NCBI GenBank assembly: GCA_003144275.1 | Contig: NJBF01000001.1 | Coordinates: forward strand, 30,001 to 62,000 | Reading direction: 5' to 3' | DNA from: Candidatus Heimdallarchaeota archaeon B3_Heim | GTDB taxonomy: Archaea > Asgardarchaeota > Heimdallarchaeia > Hodarchaeales > Hodarchaeaceae | Length of the DNA: 32,000 bases | Part shown: piece after piece, positions 1,438 through 13,074 of the stretch | Layout of the letters: the number at the start of each line of letters is the position of its first letter | Position numbering within the stretch: the stretch's first letter is position 1 | Notes under the pieces: model-generated | The model's input: the letters and a program-made list of their open reading frames with translations, nothing else | Databases searched by the model: none | Told to the model about the DNA's origin: nothing | Program-made: the position numbers and the translations under genes

Positions 1438-3111
1438 CTAGCGTAGAATATAGCGTACAAGTTGCTTAATATCTAAGGGAATCCCTTCTTTATTCCCTAA
1501 TATGGTATTAGTGTAAGATCCGATTAGATCGGACCATTCCCATCTATCCAATTGGTATAGTTCTTCTTCTGGGGATTCTATCACTTTAATGATCCGTCTA
1601 TCAACATAATCATTCAATCGTCTTTGCAAATCCAATCTCTTTTCTGCAGGAATCCCTAGGATTTGGCTAATCTTTTCCTTTGATAGTGGTTGGTTGGTTC
1701 CCAGAAGAAAGAGGATCCAATTATCAGGAGACGCTAACAACGCTTTTACCACAGGACGGAGATCTATATCCATCCCAACTGAAACACCACCTGCTTTCAT
1801 CGTGATTTCTTTGGTAACTTTGTAGCTTAGCTCTTTACCCCCATCACCTTGCTCTTTTAAATTCACAAGGCGTTCTTTTAATAGATTAACTTCCTCACGA
1901 AGATTTGCAATGTCAGATGTTATTACCATACTGTCAGAGCTTTCTTCTAAAATTTCAGGTGAAACTGTTCCCCCTTCTCTCAATAGATTCTTTAATTCTT
2001 CATTTTCCTGCCTTGTATCGATTAATATTCTTTCAAATTCTAATAATTTCTCAGATAAGTCTTCAGCGAGTCGTTCATCAATTGCCCTAGACCAAGAAAG
2101 TTTTTCGTGAGTACTTTGTGTTGTCCCTACAAGCTCTACTTCCAAATCCTCCTTGATTGCTTCTAATTCCTTTATACGCGCTTCTTGGCTCAATATTTTG
2201 TCTTTCAGCCTGTTTACTATCGATGCAGTATTTAAAATGACCTTGTTATCATCCACATTTGGAATTCGATAAACGGGTACTACACTTCCCCTATCCCAAA
2301 TTGATGCGGTTTCATACCTAACCCCCAACTTCTCAATCAACTTAGCAATTTCACGAGTTTCATCATTATATCTGAACATGAATAAATTTTCCTCGTCACC
2401 CTCAAACCTGTATAATCGAGAGAACTTCAGCCATATTGTGACAAAATCCAAAATATCCTGTTCATCTTTACATTTGGAGACAGAAAGGATTATTTGGGGA
2501 AAGCTGGCTTGGAATTCTCCAGTAAACGCTTTAACAACCGCAGAGCAAAGCTGTACAGGAATTTTAACATAAAAACCTCTTTGATTCTGTGCAAGTTCGC
2601 CATCAGGACATAAGTTCACATCAAAAACAGAATCAAATGTTTCAATAAAACTCTCAATTTTTCCTCTTTGATCAGTTTGGTAGGTACCAGTCTGAAATAC
2701 ATTCTTGGATAGTGTAAATAAGCCGAGAAGCTTAGCTAAAGAATTGCTCTTAGTTTTTACTGGAAGTTTTATTGGAAGCTGGCTCTTTTTATTCCCTATA
2801 CTAGTGACTGTGAAGGAGGTCATAAAAAGTTCTCGTTCATTTTCAACTAATATGCGAAGTGTTGACAGAGGGATGGTCATTTTTGGATTTGAACGATATC
2901 GTGACCATTGTGTTCGACTTACAACTGGACCCAACGCTTTTTGCATTCTACTATTTTGGAATACGAATCGACGTCCAGCTAATGAAAGATTTACTCGGGC
3001 CTCGTCTGGAAAGTTCTTTAATGACAACCATTCCTCGATTTCATGATCCATATCAAGTCTTGATCGTCTCTTAAAGACTTCTTCATGTAATTCTAATTTT
3101 TCGGACTCCAA
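1438..3111 (-). CDS. HTH + degenerate LAGLIDADG-like domain + coiled coil + C-terminal winged helix protein
   Basis: 557-aa ORF. VSRTQWSRYR..IPLSTLRIL (HTH-like); SLAKLLGLFTLSK and ILDFVTIWLKFS at the positions of the two LAGLIDADG helices; REIAKLIEKLGV; heptads about aa 297-420; LSKEKISQILGI...LNDYVDRRIIKV (winged helix). The CDS is secure, the domain call is by eye. Confidence 0.65.
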   Translation of the reverse strand: MESEKLELHEEVFKRRSRLDMDHEIEEWLSLKNFPDEARVNLSLAGRRFVFQNSRMQKALGPVVSRTQWSRYRSNPKMTIPLSTLRILVENERELFMTSFTVTSIGNKKSQLPIKLPVKTKSNSLAKLLGLFTLSKNVFQTGTYQTDQRGKIESFIETFDSVFDVNLCPDGELAQNQRGFYVKIPVQLCSAVVKAFTGEFQASFPQIILSVSKCKDEQDILDFVTIWLKFSRLYRFEGDEENLFMFRYNDETREIAKLIEKLGVRYETASIWDRGSVVPVYRIPNVDDNKVILNTASIVNRLKDKILSQEARIKELEAIKEDLEVELVGTTQSTHEKLSWSRAIDERLAEDLSEKLLEFERILIDTRQENEELKNLLREGGTVSPEILEESSDSMVITSDIANLREEVNLLKERLVNLKEQGDGGKELSYKVTKEITMKAGGVSVGMDIDLRPVVKALLASPDNWILFLLGTNQPLSKEKISQILGIPAEKRLDLQRRLNDYVDRRIIKVIESPEEELYQLDRWEWSDLIGSYTNTILGNKEGIPLDIKQLVRYILR

Positions 3112-10592: not shown

Positions 10593-10647
10593 TTCAGAGA
10601 TTGAATATATGATACATAATCTTAAAACTTCAACGTAGGTTTACACT

Positions 10648-11253
10648 TTGACCAATCTAGATGAATTCTTTGGGGATAATCAATCCCAAAATGTTGATGC
10701 GCTAATCGCAGTAACCAAAAAATTCTTTGTGTTTGTTTCACAATTGGCAGAAATTGTCGATGATCTGGAAAGAAAGTATGCTGAACTGGGTAGTAGAATT
10801 AGTCAGATTTCCCAACAACCTTCGGCTCCACCTCAGCTTTCTGCTCCAGGATTAACCCCTTCACCCCCTGTTTCTCAACCAATTGCTCCATCAGTTACTC
10901 CCTCCCCACCAACCGCGCCTCCACCAAGCTTACCTACTCCACCAGCGTTTCCAACTCCTCCATCGCCAGTACAAGCTCAACCATCAGAAGTACCTACACC
11001 TATTTCCGCAAACGCTCCCCCACAACCTGCTACACCCATGTCATCACCATCTAGTCTTCCACCCTTACCTGGACAATCACCTGGCCCTCCATCACCTGGT
11101 TTAGCCCCACCCGCTGTAGGTGGACAAATGGGAGGCGCACGGCCGCCTGCACCTCAGGCTCACCCATCCCCAATGAGTTTGAAAGCTCAAATGAATATGG
11201 AATTAAAGGAAGCCTTTTCTCGAATACGTAAGGGGTGGGATGAAGAGAAATAG
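10648..11253 (+). CDS. Coiled-coil / proline-rich protein with C-terminal amphipathic helix and WDEE tail
   Basis: 201 aa, TTG start; helical N-terminus, P/S/A-rich about aa 57-175, C-terminus SLKAQMNMELKEAFSRIRKGWDEEK. Confidence 0.8.
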   Translation: MTNLDEFFGDNQSQNVDALIAVTKKFFVFVSQLAEIVDDLERKYAELGSRISQISQQPSAPPQLSAPGLTPSPPVSQPIAPSVTPSPPTAPPPSLPTPPAFPTPPSPVQAQPSEVPTPISANAPPQPATPMSSPSSLPPLPGQSPGPPSPGLAPPAVGGQMGGARPPAPQAHPSPMSLKAQMNMELKEAFSRIRKGWDEEK

Positions 11254-11269
11254 ACAATAATGTTTGTTA

Positions 11270-12220
11270 TTACGTTCGTACACCATACAGCAAATTTGCT
11301 AACTCTCTTAGGTGTACTATCCCTCTTATTTCATATTCAAAAGAAGGAATTTCCTGTAAATCGAATTCATCATATAAATCTTTAATTTTGCCTAAATTTT
11401 TGAGCTGATCAGTATATCTATTCATGCAGTAAGTACAGTCAGGATTATCAGGTTGAAGTTGGTTAATGTATATTCGTTTAATAGGAAAAGCAACCTCAAA
11501 TAATGTACGAATTAATCTTTCAGTTTCCCAGATTGCCATGACGGTAGGAATTGTAACTGCGACAAACTCTGTCTCTTCATTGTTGCTAAGATGAGTTCTC
11601 GCAATCTCAACCTGATCTCTCAATTCCTCTAATTTATCAAAAGCATCCTGTTCATCAAGATCTGTTCCACCACCAATAAGAGATTTAAATCCACTCATCA
11701 GTCCCCCAATACGACGGCGCATTTTTATCAATCGAAATAACCAATTTTGGGTCAATTCTGGTAATTGTAGAAGTTTTAATGTGTGTCCAGTTGGCGCGGT
11801 ATCGAAAACAACAATATCATACTCGGGGTTCTGAATAAATTCTAACAACTGGATAAATGCGACTGTTTCGTCAGTACCTGGAGGGGAGAGAGAATTAGCA
11901 TCTCCATCTCCTAATAATTCGTTGAAAGCGCCTGTTGGATCTTGCTGGCTTATCATTTCTGAATATGTACTCATTGCCTTATCAGTACTCAGTTCAATCG
12001 CCCATAAATTATCAACATTATTTACCTTTACATAATCGTCTCCACCTATCTGTTGATCTAAACTATCAGATACAGAATGAGCTGGGTCAGTTGAAACTAA
12101 TAATGTATTGTGACCTAAATCTGCAGCTCGGATAGCTGTTGCTGCGGCCATTGTGGTCTTTCCAACACCCCCTTTCCCTCCAAAAAATAAAAAATGTTTG
12201 CTAAATATTGAATTTGACAT
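11270..12220 (-). CDS. arsA: Get3/TRC40/ArsA family ATPase (single-domain, Get3-like)
   Basis: GGKGGVGKTT, STDPAHS, PPGTDE, FDTAPTGHT, Met/Gly-rich helical insert, C-terminal CTYC (CxxC). Confidence 0.93.
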   Translation of the reverse strand: MSNSIFSKHFLFFGGKGGVGKTTMAAATAIRAADLGHNTLLVSTDPAHSVSDSLDQQIGGDDYVKVNNVDNLWAIELSTDKAMSTYSEMISQQDPTGAFNELLGDGDANSLSPPGTDETVAFIQLLEFIQNPEYDIVVFDTAPTGHTLKLLQLPELTQNWLFRLIKMRRRIGGLMSGFKSLIGGGTDLDEQDAFDKLEELRDQVEIARTHLSNNEETEFVAVTIPTVMAIWETERLIRTLFEVAFPIKRIYINQLQPDNPDCTYCMNRYTDQLKNLGKIKDLYDEFDLQEIPSFEYEIRGIVHLRELANLLYGVRT

Positions 12221-12468
12221 AAAAGGGGAGGTTAGGGAACTAAAACAAGAATCTTTTGTTGAGAACTAATTTCGAATGAGTCCTCTAGAGCTTGATCTCA
12301 GACAGGGTTTTACATCAGGGGGTGTTTCTTTTGTCTTTCAAAATGAATTTATCTTTTCTGATCGGTCATGTGAACACAAATGACAACATTTGATATCATT
12401 TGTAATAACCCTAAGATTTAACAAGACTTTCAAATTGGGAATAATTATACCTATTTTAGGCGATATTT

Positions 12469-13074
12469 ATGTGGGCTGTACCTAAAAGGTCTCAACTTGC
12501 TAGAAAGATAATTATAAGCTTTGTTTTTGCTATCCTCTGCTTTAATTTTTTATCAGTGCAGGTTCAGGCATCTCCATCAAAAACAATAAATGTTTCTAAC
12601 ACATATCCTAGCATATTTGTTACCAAAGTTGTTGATCTTACAGAAGTTACATTAAATGATTCATTTGTTGTAACGATTACGATTAGGAATATAGGTAATA
12701 GCACAGCATATAATGTTACCTTTATTGATACTTTAAACGCTCCTTGGGTTTTTGACGTGGTTGGTTTGACAAAAATTTCTTACAGCTGGATTGAACCTAA
12801 TCAAACACGTATATTTAGTTATATAGTTACTGCCCTATCCTTAGGAGAGTTTCAACTTCATTCTGCACGAGTTTACTACCGTATATCCGATCTAGCAGAT
12901 ACTGAGTTCCTAGCTTTTAGTAATTCATTGGATATTGCTGTAACTAAGGCAGAAGAAGATCTTTCGTTGGCAGACCTCAATTCTGCTATAACCTTCTTAC
13001 TCATTCTATTTATTCTCAACACAATTCTTACATTACGATTTGTAGCACCGAAGTTAAATCGAAAGAAACCTTGA
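12469..13074 (+). CDS. Single-pass Ig-fold membrane protein, TRAP-beta (SSR2)/DUF11/BatD-like
   Basis: Signal peptide ending VQA; IFVTK...TITIRNIGNSTAYNVTFID...IEPNQTRIFSYIV...GEFQLHSARVYY; C-terminal TM helix and basic tail. Confidence 0.7.
   Translation: MWAVPKRSQLARKIIISFVFAILCFNFLSVQVQASPSKTINVSNTYPSIFVTKVVDLTEVTLNDSFVVTITIRNIGNSTAYNVTFIDTLNAPWVFDVVGLTKISYSWIEPNQTRIFSYIVTALSLGEFQLHSARVYYRISDLADTEFLAFSNSLDIAVTKAEEDLSLADLNSAITFLLILFILNTILTLRFVAPKLNRKKP

Follow-up and report, generated by a model that had tools for sequence, protein, structure and literature searches.

The gene at positions 10648-11253 (+) of the window, as the whole 32,000-nucleotide stretch of DNA analysed here is called, raises the question of what its small protein binds and whether that partner is actin. 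The first-pass annotation had proposed a minimal archaeal factor recruiting profilin and actin, built from a coiled coil, a proline-rich linker, a terminal helix like those of VASP and WASP, and an acidic end with a Trp. The open reading frame and all of the motifs listed there are present as described, including the C-terminal string SLKAQMNMELKEAFSRIRK (aa 177-195) and the GWDEEK that follows it; the observation is confirmed, and its interpretation is partly supported. The frame encodes a protein of 201 aa plus stop (P0001) and corresponds to a real gene, since it is conserved in 21 of 21 genomes of its genus. The TTG start is right, because the orthologues open, in the genus alignment, with an equivalent MTNLDEFF at ATG. 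About 21-26 nt upstream of the TTG, a TATA-box-like hexamer, TTAAAA (10622-10627, +), can be read from the sequence, and its placement would suit an archaeal mRNA that is leaderless or has a short leader. Searches of the protein against Pfam and NCBIfam gave zero matches. The gene is surrounded by those for a CofE-like ligase, dihydropteroate synthase, a Get3/TRC40 ATPase, a TRAP-beta-like protein and a tRNA-intron endonuclease. The Get3/TRC40-type ATPase gene is convergent with that of P0001, with the two stops 16 bp apart, and is followed by the TRAP-beta-like membrane protein (together 11270-13074 of the window), an order that is kept in the genus (G001) and not in other Asgard classes.

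An AlphaFold2 monomer model of P0001, built on an alignment of 32 sequences, predicts a protein of three parts. At the N-terminus, a short helix (aa 3-7) coincides with an acidic-aromatic motif, NLDEFF (aa 3-8; 10654-10671, +), which in the alignments follows the family-wide pattern [DE][DE][FY]xx[FWL][LA]. A long helix is then predicted over aa 12-56 (10681-10815, +), with pLDDT about 95, and heptads read from its sequence form a hydrophobic stripe with seven-residue spacing (L19, F26, L33, L40, L47, I54). This region is presumed to be a coiled-coil oligomerisation domain, and the model is consistent with the coiled coil that had been placed at about aa 15-56; Pfam matches within the family, in 32 members, are only weak ones to coiled-coil families. 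Residues 57-174 (10816-11169, +) are modelled without structure and form a disordered arm rich in Pro, Ser and Ala, in agreement with the linker of about 120 aa described before, whose quoted strings were all found: APPPSLPTPP (aa 90-99), SLPPLPG (aa 136-142) and PGPPSPG. The peptides of the arm also include APPPSLPTPPAFPTPP and SSLPPLPG. Its Pro content is 37%, with PPP as the longest run, and its GC content 56.7%, compared with about 4% Pro in the proteome and 36% GC in the window. A Pro content of at least 25% over 100 aa is reached by only four ORFs of the genome and, since such ORFs are so few, the composition of the arm is selected and not the result of drift. The arm differs in length and sequence between orthologues, S.LPPLPG (aa 135-142; 11050-11073, +) being its sole invariant island within the genus; the sister family f2 has two or three copies of GLPPPPG in its place. 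Finally, a C-terminal helix (aa 175-199, PMSLKAQMNMELKEAFSRIRKGWDE; 11170-11244, +), nearly invariant in the genus, is predicted with pLDDT 77-89.

The family to which P0001 belongs is unnamed and Asgard-wide, and P0001 represents its short form in Hodarchaeales, the group in which the names of homologues place the genome. Outside the genus, the family is also present, more weakly, in 2 of 2 genomes of the sister family f2. A profile for the whole of the Asgard archaea, which included the f2 members and counted ORFs of 130-210 aa with separate matches to the N-terminal helix and to the tail, was positive in 174 of 400 genomes and in 45 of 85 genera. A database search recovered 372 family proteins from Hod-, Heimdall-, Odin-, Thor- and Loki-type MAGs, and their source names are either 'hypothetical' or plainly automatic labels (Lpp, eIF-1/SUI1). 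All the named organisms are Asgard archaea except for one 'Bathyarchaeota' MAG entry, itself a Thor-type sequence and, as far as seen, the family is confined to Asgard archaea. In addition, the ESM Atlas matches only the family's own unnamed Asgard clusters, a profile search of PDB sequences with the family found nothing beyond coiled-coil noise, and a search of all ORFs of the genome of P0001 with the C-terminal tail profile revealed no paralogue. One match to a longer fused form was rejected as a gene-call fusion, in which a phosphoglucomutase is merged with the Thor-type gene just downstream. No gene neighbourhood shared across the Asgard classes was found; neighbourhoods are conserved within lineages only and consist of housekeeping genes, namely dihydropteroate synthase and Get3 in Hod, eRF1-like, radical SAM and Elf1 genes in Loki, and PGM, PIG-L and GT4 genes in Thor.

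Conservation is distributed unevenly along the protein, with mean pairwise identities within the genus of 66% in the N-terminal helix, 47% in the arm and 93% in the tail. In the phylum-wide alignment, the invariant residues are E185 and L186 only, and the tail consensus reads P.SLR....ELK.LF.R.R. The end of P0001, GWDEEK (aa 196-201; 11233-11250, +), reads GW[DS]EE in the genus (g1), the only one in which the Trp and the acidic tail are kept; it is absent from f2, Loki, Thor, Odin and the long forms described below. Thus, family members of f2 end in ...ALKKVRQNIEAAEES and ...MLKKFRDRAEASE (in longer form, ...SELRDALKKVRQNIEAAEES and ...SELHGMLKKFRDRAEASE), those of Loki in ...GELKQLFAKRK and those of Thor in ELKSLLAARRRK or ...GELKSLLAARRRK, the last two groups and Odin being without Trp. 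A lack of conservation of the terminal helix and its Trp had been named beforehand as an argument against the actin reading; only half of this objection applies, because the helix is conserved but the Trp and WDEE are not, being found in a single genus. Proline tracts also vary by lineage, with GPPPPPG-type runs in Loki and f2 and none in Thor and Odin.

Whatever its partner, P0001 is very probably an oligomeric tether with a docking helix. In the proposed mechanism, it would act as a multivalent tether whose N-terminal heptad helix pairs several chains, while the proline-rich arm would serve as a long flexible spacer and may also hold weak profilin sites. The conservation and taxonomic range of the C-terminal helix suggest that it would dock on one very conserved, Asgard-specific partner, for which the best single guess would be actin. 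Asgard actin is 72-99% identical across the phylum and a partner that is likewise very conserved would fit, since the family is found only in Asgard archaea and its tail is almost frozen. P0001 could then bundle or tether filaments, or hand profilin-actin to them, like the EVH2 half of Ena/VASP. Direct actin binding by P0001 is a tentative and rather doubtful proposal. The fuller version, in which the family is an Asgard actin-assembly factor whose proline arm gathers profilin-actin while the end helix binds actin, and whose long form is a pre-eukaryotic relative of V-C-A and EVH2, seems unlikely. The family is, in any case, a reasonable candidate for an actin-linked tether.

The host does possess the components required by the actin reading, as had been supposed: its genome encodes one actin-family gene (P0041), a heimProfilin-like profilin (P0040) and several gelsolin-domain proteins. 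P0040 matches heimProfilin 6yrr at E=4e-36 and keeps G49, Y52, W53, F147 and Q148, the residues named in the polyproline contact of profilin (PMC8410842). The VASP peptide PPPAPPLP binds heimProfilin with a Kd of 0.3 mM in the form without the N-terminal extension (PMC8410842), and P0040 is likewise without that extension. At the level of sequence, APPPSLPTPP and SLPPLPG of P0001 resemble this profilin-binding peptide. Loki profilins are reported as non-binders of polyproline (PMC8410842). Actin nucleation and elongation machinery has not been found in Asgard archaea, according to papers up to 2026 (PMC9433394, PMC13716822), and the main text on the Lokiactin co-immunoprecipitation in L. ossiferum, whose own homologue lies at about 2,628,799-2,629,254 of its genome, names profilins, gelsolins, an ARF GTPase and BAR proteins, and no P0001-like protein. 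Moreover, no linkage of the family gene to actin, profilin or gelsolin genes was observed in the neighbourhoods examined. In five genomes, that of P0001 among them, the ORFs with gelsolin domains carry neither the tail nor the head of the family. The contig of the window also carries an ARPC4-like ORF (G000 contig C57:134343-134630 (-)), which exceeds the PF05856 cut-off with 32.6 bits. As regards the actin family and ARPC4, the Arp2/3 complex, to which the acidic Trp motif of WASP normally binds, is not evident, since this ORF and a single actin-family gene are what the genome shows. Next to the profilin gene L069:1501-1869 (+), on G000 contig C30, and divergent from it, L069:589-1206 (-) encodes a 205-aa coiled-coil protein with a weak match to the profile of the family N-terminal helix (E=0.013), probably a generic coiled-coil likeness.

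The build of the family recalls the EVH2 region of Ena/VASP: in both, an oligomerising coiled coil is combined with a proline-rich region and with a short basic helix that follows a stretch rich in Gly and Pro, and Thor-type tails (GGLMGELKSLLAARRKK) resemble the VASP FAB by eye. However, the order in P0001 is reversed with respect to Ena/VASP, the coiled coil being N-terminal in P0001 and the tetramerising coiled coil of human VASP lying at 343-380, after the GAB (223-239) and the FAB (259-278) (PMC10340426). In contrast to the GPPPPP-type tracts of Ena/VASP, the proline runs of P0001 do not exceed three. Nor does P0001 contain an EVH1 (WH1) domain, as it has no Pfam family and its N-terminus is a single long helix, and the short form is without an LRKV-type GAB: the GAB-type motif L[KR][KR][VT] is absent from P0001, and only f2 relatives read ALKKV or MLKKF. 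When the human VASP FAB and GAB (PMC10340426) were scored against a profile built from 98 different tails of the family, the FAB reached 4.1 bits, a score equalled by 363 of 192,498 20-residue windows of the genome's ORFs and by 86 of 2,000 FAB shuffles, and the GAB reached 0.2 bits. A protein of the size of VASP would reach such a level by chance, and the VASP-FAB likeness claimed for the terminal helix stands at chance level.

The WASP-family VCA and tandem-WH2 nucleators (N-WASP, WAVE, WASH, Spire, Cobl) share with P0001 an N-terminal helix, a proline-rich region and an amphipathic helix, and in the genus of P0001 the Trp-containing acidic end is also VCA-like. The comparison of this end with that of WASP does not hold, as GW[DS]EE is limited to the one genus. 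Moreover, none of the 32 family members is matched by Pfam WH2 (PF02205), even at E=10. In the Heimdall family f3, 27 of 31 genomes encode a homologous long form, of 270-440 aa. With the queries used, neither the short nor the long form was found in families f4 and f7, and in f5 one genome only was positive; most f4, f5 and f7 genomes carry actin. The long form has the family N-terminal helix, then two or three repeats of a helix followed by an LKKV-type motif (L[KQT]K[VA]), conserved examples being SASAILEAKAKLKKVDPDAHKKE, GPSASAILEAKAKLKKVDPDAHKKE and GVSANDIQDVRSGLTKVDPDEHRKE, and then has a basic helix (LNLEVKDALAKRKSR), an acidic-aromatic stretch (DEDDDAEFEP) and, lastly, the family tail. 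By eye, this order looks V-V-C-A-like. The VCA-like repeats and the acidic-aromatic stretch that the Heimdall long forms add are, however, not recognised by Pfam WH2 or PDB profiles: up to E=10, Pfam WH2 matched none of 8 long forms and none of 21 repeats taken in isolation, and no WH2 chain was returned when the repeats were searched as a profile against the PDB. Long forms occur at L054:3013-3825, L176:308-1243, L181 and other loci (Heimdall f3, f5, f6), with repeated APNLS units.

A further likeness concerns CCDC53/WASHC3 (PF10152), a small coiled-coil subunit of the WASH complex, which is like the family in being small and in opening with a helix of coiled-coil type. One Heimdall long form exceeds the CCDC53 cut-off of Pfam with its N-terminus (25.5 vs 24.6 bits, E=2.1e-5); only this one and its close relative, the two g7 long forms, match at E<=5e-4, and 3 of 32 short forms do so at E>=0.025; P0001 and the other long forms have no match to this Pfam family. 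This lead was treated as noise, being not general and since the PDB profile of the region returns coiled-coil noise of the haemagglutinin type.

The docking helix may instead recognise another conserved hub, such as a small GTPase/roadblock-longin module, Cdc48 or another Asgard protein, with the arm acting as a spacer and the actin-like build being convergent low complexity. This is a real possibility that is held with some reserve. It is favoured by the fact that the likenesses to FAB, WH2 and MIM1 are all statistically empty and that a proline arm with a terminal helix recurs on unrelated heads in the same genome, as the other three proline-rich ORFs all end in a helix, like P0001. One of these, some 25 kb past the end of the window (G000 C57:86949-88625 (-), L183:950-2626), encodes a multipass membrane protein of 559 aa whose proline-rich arm is variable. 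Its 16 genus-level copies, often present as two tandem paralogues, are 39-93% identical to it overall, and their tail (SPLDLIADARSTSIAELRGEMLKELRRLREIFKEE, the last 34-35 residues) is identical bar one terminal Glu/Asp change. The two others, on G000 contigs C70 and C8, encode proteins of 257 and 272 aa (L184:348-1118 (-) and L185:978-1793 (-)), each combining a head domain with a proline-rich arm and a terminal helix (..GIAILRKQMLTELKKIRSVVAEQDQ and ..MLSLSLREALKILRDEDED). Pfam contains no family for any of the three. All of them have a loose L[KR]xxMxxEL[KR] core in common with P0001. However, the Hod tail profile ranks the membrane protein 354 and the other two 22 and 715 of 8,093 ORF tails, so that these tails are not detectably the motif of P0001 and need not share its hub; what can be claimed for the proline-arm proteins is the same design and not the same motif. 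A further protein of 589 aa (G000 C4:4840-6606 (+), L186:841-2607), with a weak DUF7130 match, combines VPPPPPPG, a SLFARMRR-type helix and C-terminal zinc ribbons.

Some gene neighbourhoods may also point to small GTPases as the hub. A longin-domain plus Arf/Roc-like small GTPase gene lies within about 1.5-2.5 kb of the family gene at five loci (L055, L058, L062, L063 and L066) of Thor, f26 and Odin. However, GTPase neighbours are expected by chance because Asgard genomes hold very many small GTPases, and the proximity in these five loci of three families may be due to chance. In the sister genome G018, a PAC2-family protein encoded at L158 (contig C162, 752-1444 (+)) ends in ...KEMKNAFSRIRKGWDEEKE, the family tail, and a 48-aa ORF of the same locus (2763-2909 (-)) consists of the family N-terminal helix alone; these two halves sit among a Gtr1/RagA-like gene and two Ras-family GTPase genes. 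Either a second copy that was rearranged or a genuine shuffling of domains could account for this arrangement. As for Cdc48, a pan-archaeal hub of this kind would not explain a family that is found only in Asgard archaea.

A place for P0001 in the ESCRT system seems improbable. According to this alternative, the tail would be MIM1-like and LPPLPG MIM2-like, and the protein would be an ESCRT accessory acting on the MIT domain of Vps4, as IST1 and CHMP proteins do with a proline-rich linker and a MIM end. ESCRT-III genes and a Vps4 with an MIT domain do occur in the genome. P0001 shares with the MIM1/MIM2 proteins ESCRT-III and IST1 the proline-rich linker and a terminal helix with L-x3-Φ-x2-Φ-[KR] spacing, and its tail fits the MIM1 hydrophobic register with L186, F190, I193 and R194. 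Moreover, the tail resembles that of ESCRT-IIIB of the same genome (...GLPSPDIRSQELQKELEKIKKS vs ...HPSPMSLKAQMNMELKEAFSRIRKG), both having a PSP start. However, P0001 is without the Snf7 core of ESCRT-III, and its tail does not track the putative partner as would be expected of a MIM1, (D/E)xxLxxRLxxL(K/R). In Loki, ESCRT-IIIB ends in ELEKELNRLK and the family in ELKQLFAKRK and, in Thor, ESCRT-IIIB ends in LEEDIKxLERELGV and the family in the ELKSLLAARRRK given above, so that the tails do not co-vary across lineages. Furthermore, the family tails of Loki and Thor have Arg at the buried MIM1 position 11, whereas their ESCRT-IIIB tails keep Leu. When 8,093 ORF tails are ranked with the Hod tail profile, that of ESCRT-IIIB comes 946th, which corresponds to chance, and the family gene is not linked to the ESCRT operon.

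It is very improbable that the tail binds the family's own N-terminal coiled coil, in a head-to-tail self-assembly or an autoinhibited state that would make the protein a scaffold of its own. Both ends are the conserved parts of P0001, and the first half of the N-terminal helix has additional hydrophobic residues that do not belong to the a/d stripe (F27, V30, V37). However, the two helices are not packed together in the AlphaFold2 monomer (pTM 0.27), the two halves are on separate genes in G018, and nothing argues positively for self-assembly. Least probable of all is a membrane-anchored coiled coil with a membrane-binding amphipathic terminal helix: the helix is basic (net +3 to +4), hydrophobic and placed right at the C-terminal end, after a flexible linker, as in the targeting sequences of MinD and FtsA, but the tails have a low Eisenberg hydrophobic moment (0.04-0.35), and Glu185 is invariant with the other residues nearly so, which is unusual for lipid-binding helices, and the Hod forms finish in an acidic run. 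The low moment and the invariant Glu favour a protein partner over a membrane.

Thus, judging from the sequences compared here, the resemblances to the VASP FAB, WH2 and the WASP Trp end fail testing, and the build and its conservation are real. Asgard archaea have actin, profilins and gelsolins, and a protein that is small, Asgard-wide and strongly conserved, and is laid out like a eukaryotic actin-assembly factor, offers a candidate that can be tested cheaply and directly. If the partner is other than actin, the finding still matters, since a variable proline arm followed by an invariant helix is present on several unrelated proteins of the genome, and this points to a docking system, as yet undescribed, in the archaea most closely related to eukaryotes.
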